DNA of 64,000 nucleotides from Bacillota bacterium (GTDB lineage: Bacteria > Bacillota > Limnochordia > DTU087), in contig JAAZMR010000028.1 of assembly GCA_012798695.1 (NCBI GenBank), positions 57,168 through 121,167 of the forward strand, written 5' to 3'. The first letter of the stretch is position 1; each line of letters opens with the position of its first letter. Below the pieces are notes generated by a model. It was not told the origin of the DNA. It worked only from the letters and a program-made list of their open reading frames with translations, and did not search any database. Positions 38,082-55,918 of this stretch are shown here, piece by piece. The position numbers and the translations under genes are program-made.

Positions 38082-38116
38082 AAAAGGCCTCACCCCCAAT
38101 AACCGGAGGCGAGGCC
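38082..38116 (-). terminator. Terminator of the gap-pgk-larA-tkt-iol operon (possibly bidirectional)
   Basis: Minus strand GGCCTCGCCTCC-ggttatt-GGGGGTGAGGCC then TTTT. Confidence 0.7.
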
Positions 38117-38170
38117 CATTGCGTTAAGGGTATTCCCTTTTACTTGTCGGGTCAAGGAAGTCCAGCAGTT

Positions 38171-39199
38171 CTAACCAATCTCTGACAGCTTAACAGGCCG
38201 ATTCTCTACAGCTGATTTTGCAGCAGCCATAGCGATTAGAAGAGACTGCAGGCCGTCTTCTCCGGTTACCGGAGGGACAGTGTTTGCCTTTACACAAGTG
38301 ACGAAGTCATTCATTTCTTCTGCAAAAGAATCCATATAACGCTCTAGGAAGAAATAGAGCGGTTTATCACTGATCACGCCATCTTTGTTGCTGACGGTGA
38401 CCCGTGTAGGTGCTTCGTTCTGAGCGGCAGCAGCCCCCTTGGAGCCAAATACCTCTACCCGCTGGTCATAACCATAGACTGCCTGACGGCTGTTATCTAT
38501 GGTACAGACAGCGCCATTGGCAAACTTGAGTAGTGTTACCGCTGTATCAAAGTCGCCGGCCTCCTTAATCTGCGGGTCAATCAATACATTACCTACGGCA
38601 TAGACCTCGATTACGTCACTGCCTGTCAGATAACGGGCCATGTCAAAATCGTGAATCGTCATATCCATAAAAATGCCACCGGAAACCTTCACATATTCCA
38701 AGGGAGGTGGTGCGGGATCCCGAGACGTAATATTGACTATGTGCGGTTCACCGATTTCTCCGGATTCAACTAATTGGCGAATGTGCTTGAAGTTCCGATC
38801 AAAGCGGCGATTGAAACCGATCTGCAGTTTCGCCCCAGCCTTATCGACAGCTGCCAGAGCTTGCTTGGTTGCATCTAGTTTCTGGGCAATGGGTTTCTCA
38901 CAGAAAATCTGTTTTCCCGCCCGGGCTGCTTCGATTACATACTCTGCATGTGTACTGGTGGGTGAACAGATCACCACCGCATCGATCGTGGCATCATTGA
39001 TCAGTTCTTTCGGCTCTGCTACTACCTTTTCAATCCCATATTGAGCTGCCCATTGTTGCGTGTTCTCTACATCGATATCTGCGACTGCCACCACCAAGGC
39101 ATCGGGCACTCTGTAAACTAGATTTTCAATATGAATTTTGCCAATTCGACCGGCACCGATAACACCAATACGCACCTTTCCATCACTGGCCATATTCAT
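38171..39199 (-). CDS. iolG: myo-Inositol 2-dehydrogenase
   Basis: GAGRIG, CEKP, GFNRRFD, SRDP.PP, DMTIHDFD, YGYDQRVEV, FFLERY. Confidence 0.93.
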   Translation of the reverse strand: MNMASDGKVRIGVIGAGRIGKIHIENLVYRVPDALVVAVADIDVENTQQWAAQYGIEKVVAEPKELINDATIDAVVICSPTSTHAEYVIEAARAGKQIFCEKPIAQKLDATKQALAAVDKAGAKLQIGFNRRFDRNFKHIRQLVESGEIGEPHIVNITSRDPAPPPLEYVKVSGGIFMDMTIHDFDMARYLTGSDVIEVYAVGNVLIDPQIKEAGDFDTAVTLLKFANGAVCTIDNSRQAVYGYDQRVEVFGSKGAAAAQNEAPTRVTVSNKDGVISDKPLYFFLERYMDSFAEEMNDFVTCVKANTVPPVTGEDGLQSLLIAMAAAKSAVENRPVKLSEIG

Positions 39200-39204
39200 C
39201 TCTC

Positions 39205-40101
39205 CTAAAAACCGAGTTGCTCTCGTAAGTATTCTCTAGCCTTAACTGCATACTCCAAAGGTGGAGCAAGGGCAGGATCTTGCTCAGCTTCTACGATAAT
39301 CCAGCCTTTATAATCGATCTCGTCCAGTGCCTGAATAACCGGAGTGAAGTCAATCATCCCATCCCCGGGGACAGTGAATACTCCTTGCCTAACTGATTGC
39401 AGGAAACTCAACCCTTCATCAAACGATCTTTGCATTATGGTGGGACGCAGGTCCTTGAAATGCACATGCTGGATGCGTGGACCAAAGGTCTTGACTATTT
39501 GCACGGGATCGCCGCCGGCAAACACTATGTGGCCCGTATCCAAAAGTAGATGAACCAACTCTGGATCAGTGAGCTCCATCAGTTTTTCTGTTTCGGCGAA
39601 GGTCTGGACTCCAGTGCCCATATGATGATGATACACGATCTTCATATCCTTCTCCCTGGCCAACCGGCCCAGCTCTTCTAGACCCACAGCTAGCTTGTTC
39701 CACTCGGTCTCAGTAAAAACCGGCTTATTTTTGTGCAGGGGTACATCCATCTGGCCCTGTATGGATTTCCCCTGCTCAGAAACAACGATTACCTCAGCCC
39801 CCATGGCATGCAGAAAATCGCGATGTTCGATAAACGCATCATAGGTTTCTTGCGGGTCTTTTGTGGTAAAATAAGCGCTAAACCAGGCGCTTGCAATGGA
39901 AAGGCCCCGTGGCTTGAGAGCCGCGGCCAATGTCTTAGGATCCCTGGGGTATTTGTTGCCGACCTCGCTGCCGACATAGCCCGCCTGTGCCATTTCATCT
40001 ATGCATTGCTCGAACGAGATCTCGCCCCCTAGTTCAGGCATATCATCATTGGTCCAAGCGATTGGAGCTACACCCAGGCGTATATCACCTTGTCTCAACA
40101 T
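39205..40101 (-). CDS. iolE: myo-Inosose-2 dehydratase
   Basis: APIAWTNDDMPELG, YHHHMGT, DTGH, HVHFKD, FTVPGDG, VEAEQDP. Confidence 0.95.
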   Translation of the reverse strand: MLRQGDIRLGVAPIAWTNDDMPELGGEISFEQCIDEMAQAGYVGSEVGNKYPRDPKTLAAALKPRGLSIASAWFSAYFTTKDPQETYDAFIEHRDFLHAMGAEVIVVSEQGKSIQGQMDVPLHKNKPVFTETEWNKLAVGLEELGRLAREKDMKIVYHHHMGTGVQTFAETEKLMELTDPELVHLLLDTGHIVFAGGDPVQIVKTFGPRIQHVHFKDLRPTIMQRSFDEGLSFLQSVRQGVFTVPGDGMIDFTPVIQALDEIDYKGWIIVEAEQDPALAPPLEYAVKAREYLREQLGF

Positions 40102-40152
40102 TCCGAACACCCCCACATATTCGTTCACAACAAAACACCTGTACTACAAGGC

Positions 40153-42024
40153 TCACCATTTCCTGGCTCTCGTCAATACCTCTTCATGTTGAGCATGAGC
40201 TGCAGTCACCTGCACGTTATCTGAGATCTCTGCCACTCCCACCCGCCAATATGATTCATAGCCCTCTGAGTGGGTGCCCGGAATGACCTTGATATCGATT
40301 AGAGCTGCACCTTCCGCCTTTTGCGCTTTCTCTAAGGTCCCTCTCAAATCAGCCAAGTCAGTGACAGTATACGCACTGGCGCCAAGACTCCTGGCGATAC
40401 CGGCGAAATCAACAGTGATATAATCACCATCAAGTCTGCCGCTAGCAGAACGATAGCGCAATTCATTGCCGAAACCAGCCTGACTGCCATGTTCCTTCTG
40501 CAAGCTCTGGATACACTGGAAACCACCATTATCAAACATGAGGATAGTGATCTTCCGCCCTTCCTGGACAGCAGTGAGCAGCTCCGAGTGCAGCATGAGA
40601 AAGCTGCCATCACTGACCATCGCATAGACATCCTTGTCAGGTTCTGCCATTTTGACGCCTAAAGCCCCGGCAATCTCATAGCCCATACAAGAAAAGCCAT
40701 ATTCCATATGGTAAGTTTTGATCCCCTTGGATCTCCACATACGATGTAAATCACCGGGCAGTCCCCCTGCGGCGGCTACAATGATATCGTTTTTTGTCAG
40801 GAAATCATTGACCACTCCCAAAGCTGTGGTCTGCATAATCCCATCCTTTGATTGCAGAGAATAGAGCCGATCGACTTCCTGGTTCCACTTCGCCTTGAGG
40901 TCAGCCAGATAGTCTGCGCTATATGCAGTCTTATACCCCACCTCCTTCAAAGCTTGGGTGAGTGCCAGCAGACCTAATTTGGCGTCTGCTCCGAGGAAGG
41001 TAGATGACATTTTAAGACCATCGAAGGCACAGACATTCATATTGAGAATCTCGACCTCGGGGTTTTGAAAAGCGGTTTTCGATGCTGTGGAGAAATCTGT
41101 TAATCTAGTGCCCACGGCGATAATCAGGTCTGCCTCTTTGGCCAGTCTATTGGCGGCCAACGTACCAGTAGTCCCCACTCCCCCCATGTTCAGGGGGTGA
41201 TCCCAGGTGAGAATGCTCTTGCCGGCTTGAGTTACCGTTATGGGGATCTGAAAGGCCTCGGCAAACTGCTGCAGCTCTTTTCCGGCCAGGGCATAGTGGA
41301 CACCACCACCCGCAATAATCACGGGGTGCTGCTTGCCCTTAATCAACTGCACTGCTCGCTTGATACTGCCCTCAGAGGCCGGCCGTCGGTCAATATGCCA
41401 TACCCGCTTAGCAAAAAACTCTATGGGATAGTCATAAGCTTCACCTTGGACATCTTGGGGCAGGGCTAAGGTAACTGCACCGGTATCTGCCGGATCGGTG
41501 AGCACCCGCATGGCATTGAGGGCTGCAGTCATCACCTGTTCCGGCCGCTGAATCCTGTCCCAATACCGACTGACTGCCTTAAAGGCATCATTAGCGGTAA
41601 TAGTGTAATCATGGGGCATCTCCATTTGCTGCAAGACTGGGTCAGGTTGCCGGTCGGCAAAGATGTCTCCTGGTAATAGAAGAACTGGAATCCGATTAAC
41701 TGTGGCAGTGGCGGCACCGGTCACCATATTCAGAGCTCCAGGCCCGATGGAACTGGTACAAGCCAAGATCCCAAGGCGGTTTTTCTGTTTAGCAAAGGCC
41801 GTGGCCGCATGTACCGCCCCTTGTTCATTATGTGCTTGATAATACCGTAGGGATAGACCCTCCGTGTTCTCTAGGGCTTCCCCGATTCCCAACAGGTTGC
41901 CATGACCAAAAATACCATAGACACCGTGGACAAACTTATACTCCTGATCATCAAGTTCGACATACTGAGCATCTAGGAATCTAAGCAGTGCCTGGGCCAT
42001 AGTTAACCTAATGGTCTTACTCAT
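40153..42024 (-). CDS. iolD: 3D-(3,5/4)-trihydroxycyclohexane-1,2-dione acylhydrolase (ThDP-dependent)
   Basis: RLTMAQAL, GIFGHGN, SSIGPGALNM, RQPDPVLQQ, YHMEYGFSCMGYE. Confidence 0.95.
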   Translation of the reverse strand: MSKTIRLTMAQALLRFLDAQYVELDDQEYKFVHGVYGIFGHGNLLGIGEALENTEGLSLRYYQAHNEQGAVHAATAFAKQKNRLGILACTSSIGPGALNMVTGAATATVNRIPVLLLPGDIFADRQPDPVLQQMEMPHDYTITANDAFKAVSRYWDRIQRPEQVMTAALNAMRVLTDPADTGAVTLALPQDVQGEAYDYPIEFFAKRVWHIDRRPASEGSIKRAVQLIKGKQHPVIIAGGGVHYALAGKELQQFAEAFQIPITVTQAGKSILTWDHPLNMGGVGTTGTLAANRLAKEADLIIAVGTRLTDFSTASKTAFQNPEVEILNMNVCAFDGLKMSSTFLGADAKLGLLALTQALKEVGYKTAYSADYLADLKAKWNQEVDRLYSLQSKDGIMQTTALGVVNDFLTKNDIIVAAAGGLPGDLHRMWRSKGIKTYHMEYGFSCMGYEIAGALGVKMAEPDKDVYAMVSDGSFLMLHSELLTAVQEGRKITILMFDNGGFQCIQSLQKEHGSQAGFGNELRYRSASGRLDGDYITVDFAGIARSLGASAYTVTDLADLRGTLEKAQKAEGAALIDIKVIPGTHSEGYESYWRVGVAEISDNVQVTAAHAQHEEVLTRARKW

Positions 42025-42823
42025 GATCTTGCCTCCTTTCAGGAAACATCACCGCTTCTTCTTCCATCACCCATTTATGCTCTGGAACAAAGGTCGGTAC
42101 ACCATAAGGGTTATCATCCAGGTGCCGGATCACCCAGATATAGTACATGGCATAACCCGGAGCCGTAATATGGGGATGTACTTTGCTATCGAGAATCTTG
42201 ACTGAGTCATGATCAGTCAAGAGATAAGCTTCATCCCCAATGATGCCCACTCCAAACCCGTGGCTAGGCAGGAACCGGTAATGATAGATCTCCGGTTGGG
42301 GATGATGGTGAGGTGGATAGCTCGACCACTTCCCGGGAAAGTCCACTACTTCACCTACAACCAAGTTAGAATAAGGAGCATTGGTCTTGTCAAAGATAGT
42401 CCTGACAATCCTCGTGGAGGTTTCCTGCATGGTGCCCTTGCCTCGTTCTTCACTACGGGTATCTGTCGCACTATAGAATCTCGGGACAAACTTCACATCA
42501 CCACTGGTACGTGTGATGTTTAACTCCACATCGGTATGAGCTGTGATCTTGAGTGCCACATTGGGAGGCAAGTGTAGACAGCTGGGATTGTCGTGAAATA
42601 GGGATTCCCTTTCAGCGTGCTGCTCTTCTCCATCGAAACTAAATGTGACAGAACCGGTCATGAGCAGCCATGCGCTCTCCTTAGGGCTCTTTTCTTCGTG
42701 GACTTCACCGGCCCGCAGCCGTAGGAAGCCGAAGTCCATCATAGTATTGGCCTGGGCCTCATCCTCAGTAGTAACCGTTGTGTAACCCCACTTGAATGGA
42801 CCTTTCGCTTTTAAATGATACAA
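42017..42823 (-). CDS. iolB: 5-deoxy-glucuronate isomerase (IolB/KduI family)
   Basis: LVVGEV..PGKWSSYPPHHH, EIYHYRF, HP..TAPGYAMYYIW; overlaps the iolD start. Confidence 0.85.
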   Translation of the reverse strand: MYHLKAKGPFKWGYTTVTTEDEAQANTMMDFGFLRLRAGEVHEEKSPKESAWLLMTGSVTFSFDGEEQHAERESLFHDNPSCLHLPPNVALKITAHTDVELNITRTSGDVKFVPRFYSATDTRSEERGKGTMQETSTRIVRTIFDKTNAPYSNLVVGEVVDFPGKWSSYPPHHHPQPEIYHYRFLPSHGFGVGIIGDEAYLLTDHDSVKILDSKVHPHITAPGYAMYYIWVIRHLDDNPYGVPTFVPEHKWVMEEEAVMFPERRQDHE

Positions 42824-42835
42824 AACACAGCCTCC

Positions 42836-43804
42836 TTAGTTCTTTTTATGCAATACCTTTTGCACACTATCGACTATGGCATCAGCCGTCAATCCAAAAC
42901 GCTGCTTTAGGTAAGCGACATCTCCCACTTCACCAAAGAGATCGCGGACTCCCACTCTCTCCATGACCACTGGGTGTTTTTCTGTCAACACTTCCGCTAC
43001 AGCTGAACCTAAGCCGTTAATAATGCTGTGATTCTCTGCCGTAACGACTGCTCCGGTCTTCTGAGCACAGCTAATCACCAAGTCTTTGTCAATGGGCTTA
43101 AGTGTGAAGATGTTGACTACCATGGCTGAAATACCTTGCTGGTCAAGAATATCTGCTGCATCTAATGCCTCAGCTACCATGATGCCGATCGCAAAGATGG
43201 TGACATCCTTGCCCTCCCGTAAAAGAGCCCCTTTGCCGATAGTAAATTCCGATCCTTCCTTATAGATACGAATAGGATTTTTCCTAGCTATGCGGATATA
43301 AAAGGGCCCTGGTGTATCAATAACTTGAGGAAGGATCGCTTTGACCATAGTGTTATCAACTGGTTCAACTACAGTCATAGTGGGGATAGAGCGCATGATT
43401 CCCAGATCGTCAAAGGGCATATGAGTGCCACCATTATAGGCCGCAGTGATACCAGGATCAGTCCCCACTATCTTGGCATTAAGCTGTGCATAGGCTATGG
43501 ATACATAGATCTGATCTAGTGCTCTGCGGGAAGCGAAACAAGCAAATGTATGGCAGAAAGGTACTTTGCCTGTGGCGGAAAGCCCACCGGCAATACCGAT
43601 CATATTGGCTTCTTGTACTCCGACATTGATAGACCTATCCGGATAGGCCTCCTGGAAAGCGATGGTCCCATTAGAGTGCATCAAATCCGCGTCCAAGACA
43701 ACGATACGCTCATCCTTTGCTGCCTGCTCTAATAGGTGTGCCATATATACGTCCTTCATTTGAAGTTCATCAGGGATGCGTTGATCTACTAAGTTCGCCT
43801 TCAA
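42836..43804 (-). CDS. Transketolase-like protein, pyrimidine-binding + C-terminal subunit
   Basis: LDADLM.S, VGVQEANM, FACFASRR, YIRIAR, TLKPID, AENHSIINGLGSAV. Confidence 0.92.
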   Translation of the reverse strand: MKANLVDQRIPDELQMKDVYMAHLLEQAAKDERIVVLDADLMHSNGTIAFQEAYPDRSINVGVQEANMIGIAGGLSATGKVPFCHTFACFASRRALDQIYVSIAYAQLNAKIVGTDPGITAAYNGGTHMPFDDLGIMRSIPTMTVVEPVDNTMVKAILPQVIDTPGPFYIRIARKNPIRIYKEGSEFTIGKGALLREGKDVTIFAIGIMVAEALDAADILDQQGISAMVVNIFTLKPIDKDLVISCAQKTGAVVTAENHSIINGLGSAVAEVLTEKHPVVMERVGVRDLFGEVGDVAYLKQRFGLTADAIVDSVQKVLHKKN

Positions 43805-44658
43805 GCTTGTTCCCCCCTTTTCCAGGCTCCCTCATACCCTAAAGCCTTGAGCGCATCTTCTATCTGCGCGGGAGTGAATCGCATATGATGGTTGAGCTTG
43901 ATCCCCTCAGCAAACTGACAGCCTTTACCCTTGATTGTATCTAAAATGATCACGGAACTGCGACCTTTAACCGCTTTTGCCTGATGAATAGCTTCATAGA
44001 TAGCGGTTACATCATGGCCATCAACCAGCTGAGCATACCAGCCGAAACTCGCCCACTTTTCAAGAAGATCGCCCAATGAGTTGATATCCTTGGTATAGCC
44101 ATCTAGCTGCTGTTTGTTCTCATCGACAAAGACTATGAGATTGTCTAGTCCGGCATTGCCGCCATAGAGGGCTCCTTCCCAAACTTGCCCTTCCTGACAT
44201 TCACCGTCACCCAAGATAACATAGACACGATTATCCTTCCCGCTCATTCTCAGGCCCAAAGCTACCCCCAATCCAGTAGACATCCCCTGCCCGAGGGAAC
44301 CGGTGGTCATGTCTACACCGGGGGTTAGGTTTCGATCACAGTGACTAGGTAGGTTTGTGCCGCCCTGATTGAGGGTGAACAACATGTCCTTGGAGAAAAA
44401 GCCTCGCAAGGCTAATGCAGCATACAGAGCGGGACCGGCATGTCCTTTAGAAAGCACTAACCAATCCCGTTCTTCCATGTCGGGCCGGTTGGGATCAACT
44501 CGCATGACGCCACCGTATAATACGGCCAGCACCTCGACAATGGACATTGCACCCCCGATATGCCCAAATCCAAGATTGCCTAAGGCCTTCAAAGTCTCAA
44601 TTCTTATTTCCCTGGCAAAACTGTTCAATCTTGCCACTTCGTGTTCTGCTAACAACAA
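43801..44658 (-). CDS. Transketolase-like protein, N-terminal ThDP-binding subunit
   Basis: GHIGG, LSKGHAGPALY, TGSLGQG, GDGECQEGQVWE...N, TIKGKG. Confidence 0.92.
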   Translation of the reverse strand: MLLAEHEVARLNSFAREIRIETLKALGNLGFGHIGGAMSIVEVLAVLYGGVMRVDPNRPDMEERDWLVLSKGHAGPALYAALALRGFFSKDMLFTLNQGGTNLPSHCDRNLTPGVDMTTGSLGQGMSTGLGVALGLRMSGKDNRVYVILGDGECQEGQVWEGALYGGNAGLDNLIVFVDENKQQLDGYTKDINSLGDLLEKWASFGWYAQLVDGHDVTAIYEAIHQAKAVKGRSSVIILDTIKGKGCQFAEGIKLNHHMRFTPAQIEDALKALGYEGAWKRGEQA

Positions 44659-45926
44659 TGCTCACCACCTGAACTGCCAATTTGGGGCAGTGTTGAGGCT
44701 CCATAAGGAAACACTGCATATGCCATATCTTCACCAACTATGGTAAACCCTGCTCTGATGGCATCTTCGATATTCCGGTAAGTATCGATGCCAACCAAGT
44801 CTTCATGGACCAACTGCTCAGAAGTAACCAATAGCACCTTGATATCATTGGCTATCTTGGCGATGGCCGCGGCCTTGTGGCCACCCAAGACAAATTCTTT
44901 GCGAAGCGCCTCCAAAAGCTGTGCTGGTTCTTTTTTTGAAGTCATCCATTGTCGAAAGATCTTATTGCCATACCCTTCCCGGCATTCAGCCACCAAGATA
45001 ATGACTCCGCCTTGGCGCACGACCCCGGCACAATTATCCAGGGCCTTCTGTGCCTGGTAAAGATTGATATCCTTAGGATCGCCACCTGCACTGACAATGG
45101 CTAGATCCAGTCGCTGGGGTACGGAAACTGTGCCCGCTTGCCGCAAGCGCTCACATAATCTGCGGTGAGCTTCAGTTAGGTCGCCGGCACTCGCATCAAT
45201 TACTCTATGCTGCTCATCCACAATCACATTGAGCAGAAAATCCACTCCCACCATGGAAACGGCTTCTTCTAAATCCTCCCGAACGGGATTGCCCTCTAGC
45301 CGAGCAGCCATGGCGCTATCTTCAACCATATGGGCATGGTTACTCCTGATGGTAATTGGTGCCGCTACCCCTGGTACTATAGCTTTGGCGCCACCGGAAT
45401 AGCCGGCAAAATAGTGAAACTCTACATTTCCGATACAGATGCGAAAGTCCGCTTCCACCACTGGGCGAAAGATTTCTACAGGCGTCCCCCGCTGCGTCCG
45501 CCCCAAGGCCACCACATCGTGAATATCATGGTTAATCACACTTACTCGCTGAAAAACACGTTCCCCAACCGATTGAGCAAGCTCCTGGGCAGTCATCGGC
45601 CTATGCAATCCTAAGCCGATAACTACGGTAATGTCTTCATCCTTGACCCCAGCGGCATTGAGCCTTTCTAAGATCGGGGGCAGCAGTATCGAATTCGGGC
45701 ATGGTCTAGTCGCATCACTAGTTATGATGACTGCTTGCTGGCCCGGTTCCAGGAGCTCCTCCAGCCTGGCTGATCTTGTGGGATGATCGAGGGCCATCTG
45801 TACAATCTCTCGTTCTGGTATGCTTACCTCTTGTCGTATAGGCAGAAACGTGCCCACATGACCTGCCTTGGGCAGTTGTAAAGCTTGAAAACCGTGTCCG
45901 TAAGGTAATGCAACTTCAACCGCCAA
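44649..45926 (-). CDS. LarA-family nickel-pincer alpha-hydroxy-acid racemase (probable malate racemase)
   Basis: DATRP, GLGLHR, HYFAGYSGGAK, NH, DINLYQAQK; family assignment secure, substrate inferred. Confidence 0.88.
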   Translation of the reverse strand: MAVEVALPYGHGFQALQLPKAGHVGTFLPIRQEVSIPEREIVQMALDHPTRSARLEELLEPGQQAVIITSDATRPCPNSILLPPILERLNAAGVKDEDITVVIGLGLHRPMTAQELAQSVGERVFQRVSVINHDIHDVVALGRTQRGTPVEIFRPVVEADFRICIGNVEFHYFAGYSGGAKAIVPGVAAPITIRSNHAHMVEDSAMAARLEGNPVREDLEEAVSMVGVDFLLNVIVDEQHRVIDASAGDLTEAHRRLCERLRQAGTVSVPQRLDLAIVSAGGDPKDINLYQAQKALDNCAGVVRQGGVIILVAECREGYGNKIFRQWMTSKKEPAQLLEALRKEFVLGGHKAAAIAKIANDIKVLLVTSEQLVHEDLVGIDTYRNIEDAIRAGFTIVGEDMAYAVFPYGASTLPQIGSSGGEHCC

Positions 45927-45928
45927 TT

Positions 45929-47191
45929 TTACACCTTCCTATATGCTTTCTTTAGTGCTTTAATCAAAGGAAGCTCAACCCCGGATAAGAACCGGACCAT
46001 GGCTCCACCGGCGGTACAGATATAGTCAAAGCGCGCCTTGGCGTCATCCACCAGCATGGCTGCCGCATTGACACTATCGCCTCCGCCTACCACACTATAG
46101 CCTGGTGAAGCGGCAACAGCATTCCATATGGCGCGTGTCCCCTGTTCAAACAGGGGATTTTCATAGACACCCATGGGACCATTCACAAAAATGGTACCCG
46201 CATCTTCAATCACGGATTTATAGCAGGAGATTGTCTGTGAGCCAATATCCAGGTATAGCACATCATCAATGGGCAATTCGTCCAAGCTGCATTCCACACG
46301 AGAGCCATTTCGCTCATAGGCGAAATCCACCGGGTTTACGAATCGCTCTCCATACTTCTCTATAAACGCCTGAGCTGGTTCTACAAATCCATCTAATGAA
46401 CGTTCTTTAAGAAACTGTTCTTGTTGCTTGCCAAAGCTCTTGCCTTGAGCTATCCACATAATCATCCCCGTGACACCACCGGTCAAGATCCGATCAGCAC
46501 TGCCATTTTCCAGCACTTGCCGGATCATGCCAAAGGCATCAGAAATCTTCAGTCCACCGAGGACAAAGATCGACGGCCTTTGCGGATTTTCCATGATTGA
46601 GTAAAGAGCCTGTACTTCTGAAATGAGCTGCCTACCTCCAGCTGTAGGTAGGACCTCAGCAAACCCCACCATGGATGGAGCGTTTCTGTGGGCCGCCGCA
46701 AAAGCATCATTGACGTAGTAATCAGCCAAATATGCCAACTGGCGGACTAGATAGCAGTCTACCATCTCCCTGGGAGACAATTTAACTGATCGCTCAAAGG
46801 TGGATACTTCCTCAGTCAAATACCGAACATTACCCAGTAGTACCGCTTCCCCAGGCTGCAGAGCTTTGACTGCACCCTGGGCAGCCGGACCGGCGACATC
46901 ATCGATATACCGGACAGTCTGACCCAGTCGGGCAGATAACCTTTCCGCATGTTCACTCAAGGGGATGAGATTATGATAATCCAAAGTGTCGCCCTGGTGG
47001 GCGAGAATAGCCACCTTCGCCCCCTGATCCAGCAGGGTCTTCAGGGTCGGAATACTCTTGTTGATGCGGTTGTCATTGACGATTTTCTTGGTAACAGGAT
47101 CAAGGGGCGAATTGATATCTACCCGCAAGATCACGGTTTTTCCCTGGTAATCAAAATCATCAATGGTATTGATCTGCAAATCAGCTACCAT
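45929..47191 (-). CDS. Phosphoglycerate-kinase-family protein, archaeal type, altered basic patch
   Basis: LRVDINSP, AHQG, NVRY, VNDAFAAAHR, LGGLK, DIG, NGPMG.YE, VGGGDS, TAGGA. Confidence 0.9.
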   Translation of the reverse strand: MVADLQINTIDDFDYQGKTVILRVDINSPLDPVTKKIVNDNRINKSIPTLKTLLDQGAKVAILAHQGDTLDYHNLIPLSEHAERLSARLGQTVRYIDDVAGPAAQGAVKALQPGEAVLLGNVRYLTEEVSTFERSVKLSPREMVDCYLVRQLAYLADYYVNDAFAAAHRNAPSMVGFAEVLPTAGGRQLISEVQALYSIMENPQRPSIFVLGGLKISDAFGMIRQVLENGSADRILTGGVTGMIMWIAQGKSFGKQQEQFLKERSLDGFVEPAQAFIEKYGERFVNPVDFAYERNGSRVECSLDELPIDDVLYLDIGSQTISCYKSVIEDAGTIFVNGPMGVYENPLFEQGTRAIWNAVAASPGYSVVGGGDSVNAAAMLVDDAKARFDYICTAGGAMVRFLSGVELPLIKALKKAYRKV

Positions 47192-47193
47192 GG

Positions 47194-48210
47194 CTACCTC
47201 CCCAGTTTCAAGTGCTGATTCGTCACTCCAACTGCCTCTAGGCGATCTGTCTGCATCTCCATGCTGGCCCGAACCGCATCTATGGTCTCGGGAATGACTA
47301 CTGCTTCCTGGGGGATATTAATGGCAAAAACGATCCTGTCTTCAAATACGGTAATGGTTTCCTCCCAAACAGCAATTTCATACATGTCCCCCCTGGGATT
47401 ACCTAGATCCCGGGCATAGCGGAATAGAGAAGCATTGCCCAGAAACCCGTCAGCTAACCGGACAACGCGAATCCTCGGATGAGCTTCAAACAGCTCTAAG
47501 ATCTCTTCCTTAGTGGTTTCCCGCTTCGGCTTGGCTACCACAGAAATGATGTGTCCATGGGTGACCGGAGTGTGCACCAGTACCCCGGTTGCCTTTACGT
47601 GAGGCATGATCAGCATGAGATCCACAGCCTGATGATTAGGTACTGGATCAACTTTCAGGGCATTCGTCAACCCCCGATGATAATCTCCGGGATCTGCCAC
47701 CCGCCTGATGATAGTAATGATCACGTTCTCGATACCGATCTCCCGATCCAAGCAATCCACCGAGCGAATGAGCCCAGTTGTATTACAGGAGGTAAGCTTT
47801 AGAAACTGCTTGCCCATCCCCTGCTCATAGTTGGCATAACCATGAAAGAAAACATCAGCTACACTAGTTTTTTCTCCACCTTGGAAAACAGCTTTCTTAC
47901 CATATTTTTCATAGATTTGCTTGTTCTTGGCACCGACACCGGCACTAGTCGCATCCAAAATGATATCGACCTTTTGCACCAGATCTTCCAGGGAACCGGA
48001 AATTGGAATACCATATTCTTCTACCTTGTCTCGGTTCTCTGGTAAAGCCAGGTAGAAGTCGTAGTTCATGCCCCTCTCTTTCAAAGCCATTACCGGCAGT
48101 GTGGGGCCTATATCAGCTACACCAACCAGTTCCATATCCTTCTGTAAAGCAACTCCGTCGGCTAGCCGCTGACCAATCACTCCATAGCCAACTACACCAA
48201 CCTTAACCAT
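47194..48210 (-). CDS. Type II (archaeal-type) phosphorylating GAPDH-family protein
   Basis: GYGVIGQR, FQGGEK, SCNTTGL catalytic Cys, RRVADP, RDLGNPRGDMYE, QEAVVIPETIDAVRA; start MVKVG after AGGAGG. Confidence 0.9.
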   Translation of the reverse strand: MVKVGVVGYGVIGQRLADGVALQKDMELVGVADIGPTLPVMALKERGMNYDFYLALPENRDKVEEYGIPISGSLEDLVQKVDIILDATSAGVGAKNKQIYEKYGKKAVFQGGEKTSVADVFFHGYANYEQGMGKQFLKLTSCNTTGLIRSVDCLDREIGIENVIITIIRRVADPGDYHRGLTNALKVDPVPNHQAVDLMLIMPHVKATGVLVHTPVTHGHIISVVAKPKRETTKEEILELFEAHPRIRVVRLADGFLGNASLFRYARDLGNPRGDMYEIAVWEETITVFEDRIVFAINIPQEAVVIPETIDAVRASMEMQTDRLEAVGVTNQHLKLGR

Positions 48211-48749: not shown

Positions 48750-49175
48750 TGAAGAGAGGACGTATCCAGCCAATGTCAGAGAGCAAACTCCGTTTATAGT
48801 AGCAATGATCGGATGCGACGCCTGATGAAGGAGCTCAATCTAGTTCCTATGCAAGTTCGGAAATGTAAAGCAACAATCAATTCTAAACACTCAGTGCCGG
48901 TGGCACTTAACCTGTTTAATAGGGACTTCGGGGCTAATGCACCGTGTCAGAACTGGTTAGGAGATCTTACCTCTCCACAGAGGAAGGGTGGCTATACTTG
49001 GGAGCATTTATCGATCTTTATTCCCGGGAAGCTGTGGGTTGGGCCCCAGGAACTCGTATGACCATGCCATCAGTCCTCGATGCTGTGAACAAAACCCTAC
49101 AACTCGAACGTCCCTCCAAAGGCCTCATATTCTGTTCTGACAGCGGTTCCCAGTATGCTCCCCATGATTACCGTT
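48750..49175 (+). pseudogene. Degraded IS3-family transposase (OrfB/rve) fragment
   Basis: RRLMKE..TINSKHSVPVALNLFNRDF.A.AP...W.GDLT, frameshift, then YLSTEEGWLYLGAFIDLYSR..VGW and IFCSDSGSQY; truncated before the catalytic Glu; no inverted repeats seen. Confidence 0.85.
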
Positions 49176-49277
49176 CTGAAAGATTGCATTCTCCAATGAA
49201 ATGGAAAAAGGTGGTGATATGCAAACAAAAACCCGGTTGTTGGTGCACGCGAACATACAAATGGGAGGTCATGAAGC

Positions 49278-50570
49278 ATGAAGAGAATCACTAAAACACT
49301 CGCATTATGTGTACTAATGGTCTTGCTCATTAGTATGGTTAGTTTCGCAAAAGGCAAGATCGAGCTAACTGTACAGACTTATTGGGATCCTGAATTGGGT
49401 AGTGGAGCGAGGCTCGAACAGTCGTTCAAAGATTTTATGGCTCTCTATCCAAACATCGAAGTAAAGCACATTTACCTACCTCGAGATCAACTCATCCAAA
49501 GAGTCTTGTCACAGGTCTTGACAGATACCCTTCCCGACATTGTCTTTGCCGATAATCCTTGGGTAAGGCAATGGGCAGAGGCTGGTGTCTATAAGGACAT
49601 TACTCCACTAGTTGAACAGTGGGATGACTACGAAGACTTCTTCCACGGAACCCGAGATGCTTGTACTTTTCAGGGTAGAGCCTATGCACTACAGCTAGTA
49701 ACCAACAACTTAGCCTTATTCTACAACAAGGACATGTTTGCCGAATTAGGCATAGCTGAACCGCCCAAGACATGGGATGATATCAAAGCCATCTCTGCCA
49801 AAGTCACTGCCAATCTCCCTGGGGTATATGGGTTAGCCTTCTCCGCATGGGATGACGAGGAGTGTACATGGCAGTTTGAGCCTTTCATCTGGAGTAACAA
49901 GGGAAGCTTGCTAGAATTGGATCAGCCAGAAGCCGTGGCTGCCTTGCAGTTCTGGACTGATCTAGTTAATGAAGGATATACTGCTCGTGACTGCTTGAAT
50001 TGGCGTCAGCAAGACGTAACTCATCAGCTGGTTAACAAGAAAGTGGCAATGATGGTCATGGGCCCATGGGAAATCCGTTCCGGACTAAAAGATGCCGATT
50101 TCGAATACGGCATTGTACCCATACCAGTACCCAAAGCGGGATACAATCCGGTCAGCCCCATGGGCGGAGAGTGTTTTGGGTTAAGCTCGTCAATAGACCC
50201 AAGTAAGATAGACGCGGCTTGGCAGCTAATCGAGTACCTAGTAGCCCCAGAACATATGGCCGACTTTACCACGGCATCCGCTACCGTTCCCACCCGGGGT
50301 GCAGCCCTGGAGTTCGTCTTAGACAGGGAGCCTCGGCTAGAGGTATTTGCAAAACAGGCAGAGTATGCCCTGGCCAGGACTGTAGCAGGCGGTGGAGAGA
50401 AGTATCCTGAGGTCTCAGCCATCACCCGCAGTGCTATTCAGCGAGCCCTATCGGGTATGATGGATCCTCAAGCTGCATTCACTCAAGCAGCCGGAGAAAT
50501 CAAGGAGCTTTGGCCTGCCGACGAATACGAAGCACTGAGGAACGAGGTACGAGAGGTTCATAGTCGATAG
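49278..50570 (+). CDS. Carbohydrate ABC transporter solute-binding protein (CUT1/SBP_bac_1)
   Basis: Signal peptide, PDIV, LFYNKDMF...PPKTWD, AMMVMGPW, MGGE; GGGAGGT RBS. Confidence 0.92.
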   Translation: MKRITKTLALCVLMVLLISMVSFAKGKIELTVQTYWDPELGSGARLEQSFKDFMALYPNIEVKHIYLPRDQLIQRVLSQVLTDTLPDIVFADNPWVRQWAEAGVYKDITPLVEQWDDYEDFFHGTRDACTFQGRAYALQLVTNNLALFYNKDMFAELGIAEPPKTWDDIKAISAKVTANLPGVYGLAFSAWDDEECTWQFEPFIWSNKGSLLELDQPEAVAALQFWTDLVNEGYTARDCLNWRQQDVTHQLVNKKVAMMVMGPWEIRSGLKDADFEYGIVPIPVPKAGYNPVSPMGGECFGLSSSIDPSKIDAAWQLIEYLVAPEHMADFTTASATVPTRGAALEFVLDREPRLEVFAKQAEYALARTVAGGGEKYPEVSAITRSAIQRALSGMMDPQAAFTQAAGEIKELWPADEYEALRNEVREVHSR

Positions 50571-50607
50571 AACGATCGCACTAGATAGTCTTAGCTATTC
50601 AATCTTG

Positions 50608-50632
50608 GGCGGAAGGGGCTTCCCCTTCCGCC
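50608..50632 (+). other. Perfect 11-bp hairpin between the SBP and first permease (mRNA-stabilising/stoichiometry element)
   Basis: GGCGGAAGGGG-CTT-CCCCTTCCGCC immediately before the permease RBS; no U-tract. Confidence 0.6.
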
Positions 50633-50648
50633 TCAGGAGGTTTTCAAG

Positions 50649-51524
50649 GTGGGCAAGCTCAGATATAGACTCGGTTGTTATTTGTTTCTCTTACCTGCGA
50701 TTCTTTACATCTGCCTATTATTGATCTACCCCTTGATATACAACACGGGCCTTAGCTTTAGGGACGTCAGTCTAATCAGTTATATGAAGGGAACCAGCAA
50801 ATTCGTAGGTTTTGCTAACTATCAAAAACTATTTAGAGACCCTATCTTTCATAGGATTCTATATAATACGGCTATCTTTATGGTGCTGTCCATTGTGTTT
50901 CAGTTTGTCCTTGGTCTTCTGTTAGCTTTGTTATTCGATAGGGATTTCCCCCTGAATAACATATTTCAAGGGCTAATACTGCTGCCTTGGTTCGTACCGA
51001 TTATGGTAAAAGGCAATATTTTTCGGTGGTTCTTTAGTGATATGGGCACCATCAACGGTTTCCTAAGTTCTTGGGGTATAATTTCTCAGCCTATTCCTTG
51101 GATAACTAGCAACAGCCTACCGATTATATCTTTATCCATTGCGAATATCTGGCTGGGAATTCCTTTTAACTTCATCTTGCTGTTTACCGGTCTGAAGGGA
51201 ATCCCCGTGGAACTCTATGAGTGTGCTCAGATTGATGGGGCAACAAAGTGGTATCAGACAATCTTTATCACTATTCCGCTCCTCAAACCAGTAATTATTA
51301 CTACCCTCATGCTCGGATCGATTTTCACCATCAAAGTCTTTGATTTGGTTTGGATTATCACCAAAGGCGGACCCGGCAACTTATCGCACCTGTTCAGTAC
51401 GTATTCCTACTCTCTGGCTATGGAACAGTTCAAATTCGGTATGGGAGCAGCTGTAGCCATCGTCATGGTATTGATTGTAACGGTGATCACCATTGGCTTT
51501 AACTCCATCAAGGTCGATTACTAG
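50649..51524 (+). CDS. Carbohydrate ABC transporter permease (MalF-like)
   Basis: FLLPA, FVGFANY, EAA-loop variant ELYECAQIDGA, ITKGGP. Confidence 0.92.
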   Translation: MGKLRYRLGCYLFLLPAILYICLLLIYPLIYNTGLSFRDVSLISYMKGTSKFVGFANYQKLFRDPIFHRILYNTAIFMVLSIVFQFVLGLLLALLFDRDFPLNNIFQGLILLPWFVPIMVKGNIFRWFFSDMGTINGFLSSWGIISQPIPWITSNSLPIISLSIANIWLGIPFNFILLFTGLKGIPVELYECAQIDGATKWYQTIFITIPLLKPVIITTLMLGSIFTIKVFDLVWIITKGGPGNLSHLFSTYSYSLAMEQFKFGMGAAVAIVMVLIVTVITIGFNSIKVDY

Positions 51525-51536
51525 GGGGAGACACTC

Positions 51537-52358
51537 ATGAAATATACGTGGAAGGATTGGAAGTGGACGCTGATAGCCCTGATACCGGTATTGATCTTGA
51601 TCATACCCATTTATTTTGTATTGATCAGCGGTTTCGAAACCGTGGAAGAGATCTATCATCAGCCTCCATATTTGGTTCCACCCAATCCCACATTGCAGTA
51701 CTATGCTGATGCTTGGACAACTCTTAATCACTACTTGATGAATAGTGTGGTAATATCCGTAGGGGTACTGATCCTGACAATCGTGGTAGCAGCTCCAGCA
51801 GCTTTTGCCTTGGCCAAACTCAATTTGCGGGGCGAGAAAACAGTATCATTTCTGATGGCATTGGTGCAAATGTTACCAGTGACCACGGTCGTCATTCCCC
51901 TGTTCCTGATTTTCTTTAAGCTTAAACTTATCAATACGCATGTTGGGGTAATCCTTGGTATTTCGGCGTTCACCATCCCCTTTAGCGTAATCTTGCTGAC
52001 CGCTTATATGCGCTCCATGCCCTGGGGATTGATTGAAGCAGCTCGCATCGACGGTGCATCACTCTTCACCATTTTTGTGCGAATAGTGATGCCTATCTGC
52101 AAGCCGGCTCTCTCTACCGCTGGAATGCTTGCATTGCTGAATGCATGGGGAGACTTCATCTTCGCAATATCCTTTCTGCAAGAGCGATCTCTGCAGCCCA
52201 TGAGCGTGGGGTTATATAGTTTCATAGGTCAGTATGGCACCCAATGGAACTTGCTCATGGCAGGAAGCATGATTTACTCACTGCCGGTGATCATCGTTGT
52301 CACCCTCGCCGGTAAAGGATTGGTGTCTGGCCTAACTGCCGGTGCATTCAAGGAGTAG
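51537..52358 (+). CDS. Carbohydrate ABC transporter permease (MalG-like)
   Basis: NS, EAARIDGAS, AWGDF, GLTAGAFKE. Confidence 0.92.
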   Translation: MKYTWKDWKWTLIALIPVLILIIPIYFVLISGFETVEEIYHQPPYLVPPNPTLQYYADAWTTLNHYLMNSVVISVGVLILTIVVAAPAAFALAKLNLRGEKTVSFLMALVQMLPVTTVVIPLFLIFFKLKLINTHVGVILGISAFTIPFSVILLTAYMRSMPWGLIEAARIDGASLFTIFVRIVMPICKPALSTAGMLALLNAWGDFIFAISFLQERSLQPMSVGLYSFIGQYGTQWNLLMAGSMIYSLPVIIVVTLAGKGLVSGLTAGAFKE

Positions 52359-52420: not shown

Positions 52421-54154
52421 TCAAGTTCCGGTTTCCTTCCCTTCCCTAACAGCATCTCTCAGATCCAATAGATCTTTCATGATGTGATACAGATTGGCCT
52501 CGTAGCCATCGGTTCCGAAGATATCGTGCAACTCCTTATACATTCCAAATAGCTTGTTATAGGTCTTCACATTGGTTGGGATAGGCTCAAACTGTCTCTC
52601 TTTCAACCCACCCATAGCTGCTTGGGCTGCCTCTACCGCAGCATGGCCACCATTTTCCGGGCCTGCTGCCACTGCGGCAAACATCGCTGCCCCAAGTGCA
52701 GGCGTCTGAGCAGATCGAGAGATTTTCATGGTCCGGTTAGTGACATCGGCATAGATTTGCATGAGCATCTCGTTTTTCTCGGCAATTCCACCACAATTGA
52801 TGACTTCCTCAATATGGACACCATATTCTTCTAGCCGCTCAATGATCACTCTAGAACCATAGGCTGTACCTTCGATCAACGCCCTATACATTTCCTCCGG
52901 ACGGGTCTGTAAAGTCTGACCTAACATGAGCCCACTAAGCCGTACATCCACCAAGATGGTGCGATTGCCGTTATTCCAGTCCAAAGCCAAGAGCCCACTT
53001 TCACCTGGTTGCTGTTTTTGGGCCTTTTTGGTGAGCAGTTGATGGATGTCCATCCCTTGCTGTTTAGCCTCTTCCTGATAGCTGGCAGGTACGCAGTGAT
53101 TTACAAACCAGTTAAAAATATCTCCCACTGCCGATTGTCCAGCTTCCAGCCCATAGTGGTCAGGCAAGACTGAACCCTCGACTATCCCACATATCCCCGG
53201 TACGTCTGGTAGACCTGTTTTGAGGCTGGCCACAGCTACATCACAGGTGGAGGTTCCGATGATTTTCACCAGGGTGCCTTCTTTAACCCCAGCCCCTACT
53301 GCTCCCATATGTGCATCAAAAGCGCCAACACTAACAGCTATGCCAGCCTTTAACCCCAGCCGTTCCGCCCATTCCTCTGTAAGCAAGCCGGCCCTTTCTC
53401 CTGCAGTATAAGCTGTATTGGGCAGAGACTCCCGTATCCTGCCGAGACGCGGCTCTAAGGAAACCAAGAACTCCTTATCCGGGTAGCCAGACCAATTGGA
53501 GTTGAACATAGCCTTGTGCCCTGCTGCACAGACTCCACGTTTGAGTTTGTCGGGCGCCACCGTCCCTGTAAGTAAACCAGGGATAATATCAGCAAGTTCT
53601 ACCCACGTATAGGCCGCATCAGAGACTTCCGGGTCCACCTTGAGGCAATGCCAGATCTTGGACCAAAACCATTCGGAGGAATAGGCACCACCGACTTTTG
53701 CCAGAAACTGTGGCCTAATCTCCGCGGCCCTAGCTGTGATAGCCCCGGCTTCCTCATAGGAAGTATGATCTTTCCAAAGCCAAGCCATGGCATTTGGGTT
53801 ATCCACAAATCGTGGGTCCAGTCCTAATGGGATGCCATGAGCATCTACTGGCATGGGAGTACTACCAGTTGTATCTACACCAATACCAATGATCTGATCA
53901 GGGCTGAAGTCTTTGCGATTAGCCTGCGCTTCTCGAATAGCACCACGGCCGGCAGCCTCTAACCCATCTAGATAGTCCCGTGGATCCTGACGGGCAACAT
54001 TAGGATCAACGGGATCGACAATTACCCCATCAACTCCGGCTTGGTAGTTGTATACACTAGTACCAACCTCTTCGCCGGTAGCAATATCCACGACCAATGC
54101 TCGCACGGAGTTAGTCCCATAATCAAAGCCTAAGGCAAAACGCCCGTTTTTCAA
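52421..54154 (-). CDS. araB: Ribulokinase (FGGY family)
   Basis: GFDYGTNSVRA, GVDTTGSTP, LWKDHT, YSSEWFWSK, CAAGHKAM, FDAHMGAVG, LALDWNNGNR. Confidence 0.9.
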   Translation of the reverse strand: MKNGRFALGFDYGTNSVRALVVDIATGEEVGTSVYNYQAGVDGVIVDPVDPNVARQDPRDYLDGLEAAGRGAIREAQANRKDFSPDQIIGIGVDTTGSTPMPVDAHGIPLGLDPRFVDNPNAMAWLWKDHTSYEEAGAITARAAEIRPQFLAKVGGAYSSEWFWSKIWHCLKVDPEVSDAAYTWVELADIIPGLLTGTVAPDKLKRGVCAAGHKAMFNSNWSGYPDKEFLVSLEPRLGRIRESLPNTAYTAGERAGLLTEEWAERLGLKAGIAVSVGAFDAHMGAVGAGVKEGTLVKIIGTSTCDVAVASLKTGLPDVPGICGIVEGSVLPDHYGLEAGQSAVGDIFNWFVNHCVPASYQEEAKQQGMDIHQLLTKKAQKQQPGESGLLALDWNNGNRTILVDVRLSGLMLGQTLQTRPEEMYRALIEGTAYGSRVIIERLEEYGVHIEEVINCGGIAEKNEMLMQIYADVTNRTMKISRSAQTPALGAAMFAAVAAGPENGGHAAVEAAQAAMGGLKERQFEPIPTNVKTYNKLFGMYKELHDIFGTDGYEANLYHIMKDLLDLRDAVREGKETGT

Positions 54155-54484
54155 GGCAAATCCCCCTTCCACACGTTATCTACTATTGTCTTTGTGCGCA
54201 AACTACCATCATTCTCCTAACTTGCCTAGGAATGTATTCGAAAAAGAATGAAAAAAACCTGCAGAGGCAGAGCAATAGATATCCTTAGGGAAGCCCTGGT
54301 ACCACGCAGCTTCGCATTATCCCGCCGCCAGCTGCAGATGCCTACACCTACCGATTGCTTTGTGAGAGCTTTGAAAAAGGTAATCCCGAGATCTCCGACG
54401 AATTCTTGTTTGAATAGGCTTTTTGCTGCGAATTACCGGTAGTGAAATATCATGGCCAGCGAATGAGAAAGGAAGGCATCAGCT

Positions 54485-55339: not shown

Positions 55340-55918
55340 TTACTTTTCGCCGGTTTCTTGGTAATGCTGGGCGAGATAATGTTTCCGCCCGATTGCATAG
55401 AGATCATTCCCCAGGGGGTCTACGGCCACGATTAAAGGAAGGTCTTCTACCACTAAGCGCCTGATCGCCTCAGGCCCTAGTTCAGGATAAGCCACAACAG
55501 CTGCTTCCCTAACCGAACGGGCAATTAGTGCACCGGCACCTCCGATGGCAGCAAGGTAGATGGCGTGGTGCGCGGCTATGGTGTGCACGACTTCTCTGGC
55601 AAGGGGGCCCTTGCCAATGATGGCCTTAAGTCCTGCAGCGAAAAGTTGAGGTGTATAAGGATCCATCCGCCCACTGGTAGTGGGTCCGATAGACCCAGTG
55701 ATTTGGCCGGGCCGAGCCGGACTGGGCCCAGTGAAGTAAATAGTAGCTCCCGCCAATTTGATCGGCAAATCTGTACCTGCAGCCAGAAGCCGCACCAACC
55801 GTTGGCAAGCGGCATCCCGAGCTGTAAAGATTTCTCCACTCAAGAGAAGCCTCTCACCCGCCTCCAGCTGCTTGATGTCATGATCAGTAAGAGGTGTTCG
55901 CAGCCGCTGCTTAGCCAT
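55340..55918 (-). CDS. Class I fumarate hydratase / tartrate dehydratase family, beta subunit
   Basis: FTARDAA, GPTTSGRMD, IGKG, GGAGAL, ELGPEAI; overlaps the alpha subunit stop. Confidence 0.9.
   Translation of the reverse strand: MAKQRLRTPLTDHDIKQLEAGERLLLSGEIFTARDAACQRLVRLLAAGTDLPIKLAGATIYFTGPSPARPGQITGSIGPTTSGRMDPYTPQLFAAGLKAIIGKGPLAREVVHTIAAHHAIYLAAIGGAGALIARSVREAAVVAYPELGPEAIRRLVVEDLPLIVAVDPLGNDLYAIGRKHYLAQHYQETGEK

Follow-up and report, generated by a model that had tools for sequence, protein, structure and literature searches.

A candidate transketolase-dependent variant of myo-inositol catabolism predicted to yield D-malate and ATP

What might an inositol operon do when its lower half is built from proteins that resemble glycolytic enzymes? 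The question is raised by a 64,000-nt stretch of bacterial DNA, here called the window, which corresponds to positions 57168-121167 of contig C124 in a 2.68-Mb, 130-contig genome rated 100% complete. Nine consecutive open reading frames (ORFs) of the window, all on the minus strand and running from 48210 to 38171, encode four proteins of the inositol families IolG, IolE, IolD and IolB, together with a split transketolase, a glyceraldehyde-3-phosphate dehydrogenase (GAPDH)-like protein, a phosphoglycerate kinase (PGK)-like protein and a LarA racemase. Based on comparison of its sequences across genomes, we propose, with a probability of roughly 70%, that the products of this operon catabolise myo-inositol by a transketolase-dependent route to D-malate and ATP.

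The operon and its predicted chemistry

The genes were assigned by Pfam and NCBIfam profile searches with family cut-offs. In order of transcription, the operon and its end are made up as follows.

47194 to 48210, minus strand: gapII, a type II (archaeal-type) GAPDH paralogue (NF003251, 407.5 bits; cut-off 185)
45929 to 47191, minus strand: pgkL, a PGK paralogue (PF00162, 355 bits, profile positions 1-378 of 379)
44649 to 45926, minus strand: larA, a nickel-pincer-nucleotide (NPN) racemase whose best NCBIfam model is NF052593 (LarAH6 malate racemase)
43801 to 44658, minus strand: tktN, the half of a split transketolase that binds thiamine diphosphate (ThDP) (PF00456, 163 bits)
42836 to 43804, minus strand: tktC, the Pyr and C-terminal half of the split transketolase (PF02779, PF02780)
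42017 to 42823, minus strand: iolB-like, a divergent 5-deoxy-glucuronate isomerase (PF04962 KduI/IolB, 195.6 bits)
40153 to 42024, minus strand: iolD, trihydroxycyclohexane-1,2-dione acylhydrolase (TIGR04377, 925.7 bits; cut-off 715)
39205 to 40128, minus strand: iolE, myo-inosose-2 dehydratase (TIGR04379, 423.8 bits; cut-off 290)
38171 to 39199, minus strand: iolG, inositol 2-dehydrogenase (TIGR04380, 485.4 bits; cut-off 355)
38082 to 38117, minus strand: intrinsic terminator with a 14-bp G+C-rich stem, a 5-nt loop and a UUUU tail, 54 nt past the iolG stop

Successive ORFs are separated by 2, 2, -10, -4, 12, -8, 24 and 5 nt; three of the junctions are overlaps, which suggests translational coupling. 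The first gene starts with an ATG at 48210 behind an AGGAGG-like site, its ORF being extendable to a GTG at 48243, and its product also matches TIGR01546 (309.4 bits; cut-off 232.9). At the other end, a 116-nt region containing the terminator folds with -44.6 kcal/mol (z = -3.05), and none of 200 shuffled sequences was as stable. A scan of the window for consensus promoters and terminators showed no enrichment over shuffled sequences; it returned 11 terminator sites, with 10.2 expected by chance, and the operon terminator was not among them. ORF spacings, family matches and this strong hairpin agree with the original prediction for the stretch, which described nine minus-strand genes that abut or overlap and end at one terminator.

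The steps from myo-inositol to 5-dehydro-2-deoxy-D-gluconate (DKG) are textbook chemistry for the IolG, IolE, IolD and IolB families, and on family grounds IolG, IolE, IolD and the IolB-like isomerase would carry them out here. The split transketolase would then cut unphosphorylated DKG, replacing both the phosphorylation by IolC and the cleavage by IolJ. It would do so by moving the C6-C5 ketol unit of DKG onto an aldose acceptor, probably a sugar phosphate, thereby freeing (R)-3-hydroxy-4-oxobutanoate (malate semialdehyde, OHC-CHOH-CH2-COO-). GapII may oxidise this aldehyde in the presence of phosphate to D-malyl phosphate, from which PgkL would pass the phosphate to ADP, producing ATP and D-malate. 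Lastly, LarA is expected to turn D-malate into L-malate for central metabolism; in other genomes a malic enzyme would act next, or a tartrate/D-malate dehydrogenase would stand in the racemase's place. In sum, the route would spend no ATP on IolC, gain one ATP by substrate-level phosphorylation and avoid malonate semialdehyde.

The geometry of the substrate is compatible with such a cleavage. As a ketose, DKG presents a free terminal CH2OH-CO- group followed by the 3S,4R (D-threo) arrangement, like xylulose-5-phosphate; derived anew from Fischer projections, this is the same transketolase-donor shape that the original prediction had ascribed to it. The C4 fragment left behind is D-configured and would oxidise to (R)-malate, which is D-malate. 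Malate semialdehyde is itself a carboxylate analogue of D-glyceraldehyde-3-phosphate, and its oxidation with phosphate gives an analogue of 1,3-bisphosphoglycerate. Because D-malate is not a central metabolite, the route would also explain the presence of a racemase, with malic enzyme or fumarase acting after it, or of a decarboxylating D-malate dehydrogenase instead.

Absent enzymes, extra copies and gene neighbourhoods

The enzymes that the route would replace were sought in the whole source genome, where the original prediction had also proposed to look for separate housekeeping gap and pgk genes. No iolC exceeds its cut-off, the best matches being two PfkB proteins with 115.4 and 114 bits against a threshold of 300, and no iolA/mmsA gene for methylmalonate-semialdehyde dehydrogenase (MMSDH) was found (best match, 22.4 bits; cut-off 448.5). 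IolJ was judged by the class II aldolase family; the genome has four such aldolases, all of them outside the window and on contigs other than those with the best PfkB genes. All matches of the genome to iolC, iolA and class II aldolase lie outside C124:57168-121167, so the absence of iolC and iolA first noted for the window stands. A separate housekeeping set is present, consisting of a type I gap (461.5 bits), then a pgk with an HLGRP motif and then tpi, divided between the terminal part of contig C18 and the beginning of C43; contig C17 adds another split transketolase (45-46% identical to the operon's; 45% for tktN). The operon's own GAPDH, PGK and transketolase genes are therefore extra copies. 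The genome also encodes one malic enzyme and the NPN cofactor proteins LarC (213.3 bits; cut-off 90) and LarE (348.5 bits; cut-off 150). Its second LarA, on contig C80, is 30% identical to the operon's and is encoded about 2.5 kb from a ThDP enzyme 26% identical to IolD (G000:C80:11452-16725).

The distribution of iolC among related genomes points the same way. In 47 genomes with an iolD linked to gapII, iolC exceeds its cut-off only twice; each of these two genomes has two iolC copies, one of which adjoins an MMSDH gene, which argues for a separate canonical cluster in both. MMSDH/IolA itself is above cut-off in eight of the 47. The same phylum served as a control: of 400 of its genomes searched for IolD, 17 were positive besides the source genome. 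In sixteen of them IolC is encoded at most a few kb from IolD and gapII is absent, and the sole iolD genome without IolC has a gapII (79% identity) 4 kb from IolD. These tallies are counts and not a test, many of the genomes being related or metagenome bins. Apart from two of 47 carriers, then, iolC and gapII are mutually exclusive, a conclusion that is well supported and that bears out the expectation that the paralogues exclude iolC: all 16 iolC-bearing control genomes with iolD are without gapII. The exclusion fits the proposed route because transketolase needs a free C6 hydroxyl, which phosphorylation by IolC would block.

A scan of one genome per species returned 401 relatives of gapII, and the best 80 loci were studied with flanks of up to 10 kb. 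Counts out of 80 and 51 are from tblastn and exclude the window, while those out of 81 and 52 include it; family counts from ORF clustering are lower bounds, some genes being mis-called as antisense ORFs in G+C-rich spirochaete loci. By their record titles, the 80 loci span Bacillota (Clostridia, Negativicutes, Desulfosporosinus, Thermincola), Thermotogae, Atribacteria, Spirochaetes, Chloroflexi (Anaerolineae), Planctomycetota and Opitutaceae; cultured carriers named in these titles include Clostridium magnum DSM 2767, Fonticella tunisiensis DSM 24455, Flexilinea flocculi TC1, Lucifera butyrica and Sphaerochaeta halotolerans. In 74 of the 80 loci pgkL is present, directly downstream of gapII in 73 of these 74; of the six other loci, five are cut off by a contig end or stop close to one. 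The other genes were found in 54 (larA), 43 (tktN), 43 (tktC), 45 (iolB), 48 (iolD), 48 (iolE) and 43 (iolG) loci; 31 loci hold all eight genes other than larA, and 24 hold all nine. Fifty-one loci contain iolD or iolE, and 38 of these also contain a transketolase. The same gene set thus recurs, rearranged, in dozens of species across phyla, as foreseen in the original prediction, which expected the cluster to be kept as a unit. Recurrent neighbours are a ribose-type ABC transporter, whose three parts occur in 31, 28 and 21 loci, and LacI regulators (20 loci).

Neighbours that handle malate bear on the product. The best solved-structure match of the operon's LarA is 6D6Z, the malate racemase Mar2 (333.8 bits), and the gene most likely encodes a malate racemase that converts D- to L-malate. 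Ten LarA proteins that neighbour gapII in the related loci were sampled: six exceed the LarAH6 cut-off, one (from locus L083) exceeds that of the separate LarAH5 family of malate racemases, and the remaining three, for which LarAH6 is the best model, do not reach a cut-off. Of the 81 loci, 27 encode a short malic enzyme. TIGR02089 tartrate/D-malate dehydrogenase occurs in four (L015, L021, L051 and L088; 517 and 545 bits, cut-off 470), all of them without LarA in the fetched flank. At least one of LarA, malic enzyme and tartrate/D-malate dehydrogenase accompanies 42 of the 52 iol-linked loci. Judged by these families, three kinds of malate-taking enzyme, two of which act on the D isomer, appear to have been recruited beside the GAPDH-PGK pair. 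That malate is the pathway's product, as predicted at the outset, is therefore well supported by gene neighbourhood, with malic enzyme, two malate-racemase families and D-malate dehydrogenase all adjoining the module.

As to the transferred C2 unit, sugar phosphates may carry it back through the pentose-phosphate pathway and upper glycolysis; a phosphofructokinase in five clusters and the lack of a phosphoketolase are a hint to this. Phosphoketolase had been considered as the fate of the unit and was rejected, no protein of the source genome exceeding the cut-off (19.8 bits; cut-off 23.7). The phosphofructokinase is ATP-dependent 6-phosphofructokinase (TIGR02482, 412.9 bits; cut-off 371), which closes the cluster at L064:10479-11438 and in L019, L027, L028 and L081, and in four Anaerolineae loci a ScrK-like ROK kinase (296.5 bits; cut-off 400) does so (L060:12553-13446, L046, L054 and L084). 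Both neighbours may be hints to where the C2 unit goes.

Other genes adjoin the GAPDH-PGK pair in some loci. At L032:6659-7495 and L037:17719-18696 and in L044, L058 and L087, it stands beside genes of the inositol route known from Thermotoga, in some cases together with the signature transketolase described below; these genes include IolN (NF041098, 523.5 bits; cut-off 245) and an IolO-like epimerase (267.9 bits; cut-off 300). These neighbours suggest that a second upper pathway (IolN/IolO) feeds the same module, perhaps through a C4 acid resembling tartrate semialdehyde. In non-iol loci the pair is also adjoined by an aldehyde:ferredoxin oxidoreductase (PF01314, PF02730; L040:7982-9844, L032 and L090) or by a 220-residue protein of the Asp/Glu-racemase family that has no NCBIfam match (L042:12290-12952, L062 and L067).

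In the window itself, the operon has genes for CtsR, McsA and McsB as neighbours, by which the genome is assigned to Bacillota. A fragment of an IS3-family transposase (48944-49294, plus strand; 65.6 bits, cut-off 160) that covers only profile positions 225-294 of 369 separates the operon from a divergent CUT1-type sugar ABC transporter (49278-52358), in whose stead related loci mostly carry the ribose-type transporter. Further upstream are a ribulokinase (52421-54172, minus strand; 702.5 bits, cut-off 428) and a two-subunit class I fumarate hydratase (55340-56798, minus strand; 400.5 bits, cut-off 276, and 237.6 bits, cut-off 238). This fumarase lies 7 kb upstream of the operon and is left out of the proposed system. 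The cluster is preceded by a 786-residue protein, a ParA-like gene and a ribulokinase both in the window and in its close relatives L013 and L025.

Biogas fermenters and anaerobic digesters are the sources of the sequencing runs that contain the stretch. Metatranscriptome contigs from digesters (four runs, three studies) match parts of iolG, iolE, iolD, iolB, tktC, tktN, larA and pgkL with at least 99% identity; the 18 pieces are 153-259 nt long and 17 of them fall on the operon, and being RNA-library contigs they are no proof of transcription, strand or induction, just as uncovered stretches of the operon carry no meaning.

Active-site changes and competing explanations

If the three paralogues act on a carboxylate rather than a phosphorylated substrate, their active sites could be expected to differ from those of the housekeeping enzymes. 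PgkL is 32-39% identical to the housekeeping PGK of the source genome, and the solved structure closest to it is that of the archaeal PGK 2CUN. The basic patch that binds the 3-phosphate of 3-phosphoglycerate in PGK consists of His62, Arg65, Arg122 and Arg170. In 68 members of the pgkL clade the equivalent of Arg65 is Asp (60), Ser (4), Gly (3) or Asn (1) and is never basic, while the same region reads HLGRP in the housekeeping PGK and HQGKP, with Lys at the Arg65 position, in 2CUN. The equivalents of Asp23, Asn25, Arg38, His62, Arg122 and Arg170 are retained, and a 13-residue insert follows the Arg122 motif. The loss of Arg65 fits a substrate with a shorter, singly charged carboxylate tail.

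In the transketolase, the TktC signature is GTDPGITAAYNGGTH in the operon and ATHAGVTVGEDGGSH in the housekeeping copy, at which place the cluster proteins have G(S/T)DPG..AA(F/Y)NGGTH. An Asp at the position of His461 and an Asn at that of Asp469 are found in 42 of 44 TktC family members near gapII, and as the two exceptions are remote, non-adjacent proteins, the signature is present in all 42 true members; the housekeeping transketolase has His and Asp at these positions. His461 and Asp469 (E. coli transketolase numbering) are contact residues for the sugar phosphate. The (Q/A)E(A/Q) motif retains its cofactor glutamate, and of the two arginine positions that bind the distal anion, one holds Arg or Lys and the other Arg. 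These changes fit an altered substrate. A third variant of the motif, GSSGGITLGPDGATH, occurs in the C-terminal half of a split transketolase in a spirochaete genome (G035:C85:142354-144837, locus L104), where a gene of the MMSDH family (562 bits) lies directly 3′ of this half.

GapII belongs to a tight clade, with 74-100% identity among its best 120 database relatives, which come from Kosmotoga, Marinitoga, Thermodesulfobium, Thermoanaerobacterium thermosaccharolyticum, Caloramator, Carboxydocella, several Clostridium species and others. Among representatives clustered at 50% identity, only two full-length ones are close to it (68% and 58%), the next being at most 44% identical, and its nearest solved structures are the archaeal GAPDHs 2CZC, 1CF2 and 1B7G. 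The clade retains the catalytic cysteine motif SCNTTGL and an RR motif; in comparison with 44 outgroup representatives, SHH has become (S/N)HQ, HQE has become PQE, and R has become N in the RxR motif. The original prediction had read the active-site changes of the non-iol enzymes as fitting the route. This holds for the PGK-like protein and the transketolase, in which the changes are fixed (68/68 and 42/42); the GAPDH-like protein is changed too, but its substitutions are uninterpreted.

Several observations weigh against the proposed route. The operon's LarA scores 492.2 bits with the LarAH6 malate-racemase model NF052593, 8 bits short of the cut-off of 500, and the IolB-like protein, with 102.8 bits against TIGR04378 (cut-off 205), is below the IolB equivalog. 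GapII keeps its RR motif. In the window, no inositol-type transporter or regulator adjoins the operon, and the transposase fragment lies upstream of it. The four class II aldolases and several PfkB kinases of the source genome could in principle replace IolJ and IolC. In other genomes, 13 of the 51 iol-linked loci lack tkt in the fetched flanks; ten such genomes have a signature transketolase elsewhere in five cases, only ordinary ones in four and none in one, many of the tkt-less genomes being metagenome bins, and those with only an ordinary transketolase include the two closest relatives of the source genome. Ten of the 52 iol-linked loci have neither LarA nor malic enzyme nor tartrate/D-malate dehydrogenase in the flank. 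Lastly, 29 of the 81 loci have gapII without iolD or iolE, which means that the link between the GAPDH-PGK pair and inositol is not exclusive.

These 29 loci bear on a first alternative, in which the proposal is right in kind and its details differ: the substrate could be another or a phosphorylated C4 aldehyde acid, the GAPDH could be non-phosphorylating, or the pair could form a general sugar-acid module. In its favour, some of the non-iol loci carry IolN/IolO-type genes, an aldehyde:ferredoxin oxidoreductase or an Asp/Glu-racemase-like gene, and malate racemases show a weak epimerisation of tartrate (PMC11770544); the uninterpreted substitutions of gapII also leave room for it. Yet LarA, malic enzyme or tartrate/D-malate dehydrogenase is found in 20 of the 29, which points to malate there too, and the near-invariable position of pgkL directly downstream of gapII argues for an acyl-phosphate product. 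We regard such a departure in detail as rather unlikely.

A second alternative retains the canonical chemistry of IolC, IolJ and IolA, carried out by non-orthologous enzymes encoded elsewhere, and takes the operon's GAPDH, PGK and transketolase for extra isoenzymes that serve the flux from dihydroxyacetone phosphate (DHAP). The NCBIfam labels, which are type II GAPDH and PGK, would agree with this, and candidate replacements exist in the PfkB kinases, which score 115 and 114 bits with the IolC model, and in the four class II aldolases; however, the PfkB and aldolase genes share no contig, no IolA is available for the removal of malonate semialdehyde, and housekeeping gap, pgk and tkt are already present. 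Isoenzymes of glycolysis would hardly have lost the phosphate-patch residue in every one of the 68 members of the PGK clade or have two altered contact residues in the transketolase, and neither the company of malate racemase, malic enzyme and D-malate dehydrogenase nor the strict exclusion of iolC would be explained. We consider this very unlikely. That the genes share no pathway and stand together only by chance, or as a selfish unit carried by horizontal transfer, is scarcely credible: gapII identities of 70-93% across phyla do show lateral spread, and the IS3 fragment lies upstream in the window, but order and content recur in dozens of species, rearrangements keep the gene set, and the gene overlaps suggest translational coupling.

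The transketolase-dependent route to D-malate and ATP, as first predicted, is thus supported by comparative genomics, its steps past DKG being inferred; each of the proposed checks that lends itself to computation turned out in its favour.

Significance and comparison with known systems

Searches of the full-text literature, in which few subscription journals are covered, returned no description of the route and nothing that links transketolase, D-malate, LarA, GAPDH or PGK with inositol catabolism. The words inositol, transketolase and phosphoglycerate kinase are absent from the main text of two papers on the LarA superfamily, and the searched literature holds no report of growth on inositol by the cultured carriers Lucifera, Fonticella, Caloramator, Flexilinea and Kosmotoga. 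Judged by sequence comparison, the route is thus probably a variant of inositol catabolism without a description in the searched literature, in which the logic of GAPDH and PGK is reused on a carboxylate substrate.

If this is true, the operon would represent a new energy-conserving branch of inositol fermentation, with two new activities within two of the best-known enzyme families, an acyl phosphate new to ATP synthesis and a second natural transketolase acting on an unphosphorylated anionic ketose. It would account for the 'archaeal' GAPDH and second PGK of hundreds of bacterial genomes, now annotated as glycolytic, and could answer the question of the physiological role of malate racemases, which PMC7583248 leaves open. 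Inositol and phytate turnover in digester, sediment and gut metagenomes would have to be reread, as searches for iolC and iolJ would miss the carriers, and the predicted yield of malate and ATP, with no ATP invested, would be attractive for engineering. A broader view, which we hold to be evenly poised between right and wrong, is that the archaeal-type GAPDH and PGK form a portable module of substrate-level phosphorylation for C4 2-hydroxy-aldehyde acids (malate semialdehyde, perhaps tartrate semialdehyde) that works through D-malyl 1-phosphate, a natural acyl phosphate new to science. In anaerobes of at least six phyla, lateral transfer would have joined the module to a transketolase specific for carboxylates and to two or more upper pathways (iolBDEG and IolN/IolO), and the module would give malate racemases a physiological role.

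It is instructive to set the proposal beside known systems. With the canonical pathway of the B. subtilis type (IolG-IolE-IolD-IolB-IolC-IolJ-IolA), the operon shares the families of its upper four steps. It differs in that its genome lacks IolC and IolA and the lower half consists of a transketolase, a GAPDH-like and a PGK-like protein and a malate racemase; the canonical pathway gives DHAP, acetyl-CoA and CO2, whereas the operon is predicted to give D-malate and a transferred C2 unit.

In the sulfoglycolytic transketolase (sulfo-TK) pathway, the donor is an anionic ketose without a phosphate group: a transketolase strips off its ketol unit, and a shorter aldehyde that still carries the anion remains. 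The logic of the cleavage is the same as proposed here, the anion being a sulfonate there and a carboxylate here. The sulfo-TK pathway is not known to oxidise the released aldehyde through an acyl phosphate with a gain of ATP, the step proposed for the present operon.

Lower glycolysis shares with the operon the GAPDH and PGK families and their logic, in which an aldehyde and phosphate give an acyl phosphate and then ATP; the operon's proteins retain the catalytic Cys motif of GAPDH and, in PGK, the nucleotide side. The operon's pair differs in being of archaeal type, in standing beside a normal bacterial gap-pgk-tpi set and, for pgkL, in lacking the Arg65 equivalent; the glycolytic substrate, glyceraldehyde-3-phosphate, has a phosphate where the proposed substrate of the operon has a carboxylate.

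Alternative lower halves of inositol catabolism in anaerobes are also represented by the IolM/IolN/IolO route of Thermotoga (PMC3553997) and by the Anaerostipes route (PMC8355322). Unlike the operon, neither is known to include a transketolase, a GAPDH-like or a PGK-like protein; the word 'transketolase' is absent from PMC8355322, and PMC3553997 does no more than mention the Thermotoga inositol variant.

The best match of the operon's LarA in both solved structure and family is Mar2, the LarAH6 protein of Thermoanaerobacterium thermosaccharolyticum (PMC7583248; PDB 6D6Z). The same species, whose genome is outside the 80 loci studied, also encodes a gapII orthologue with 79% identity. The cellular role of Mar2 is left open in PMC7583248; the route outlined here proposes a source of D-malate.

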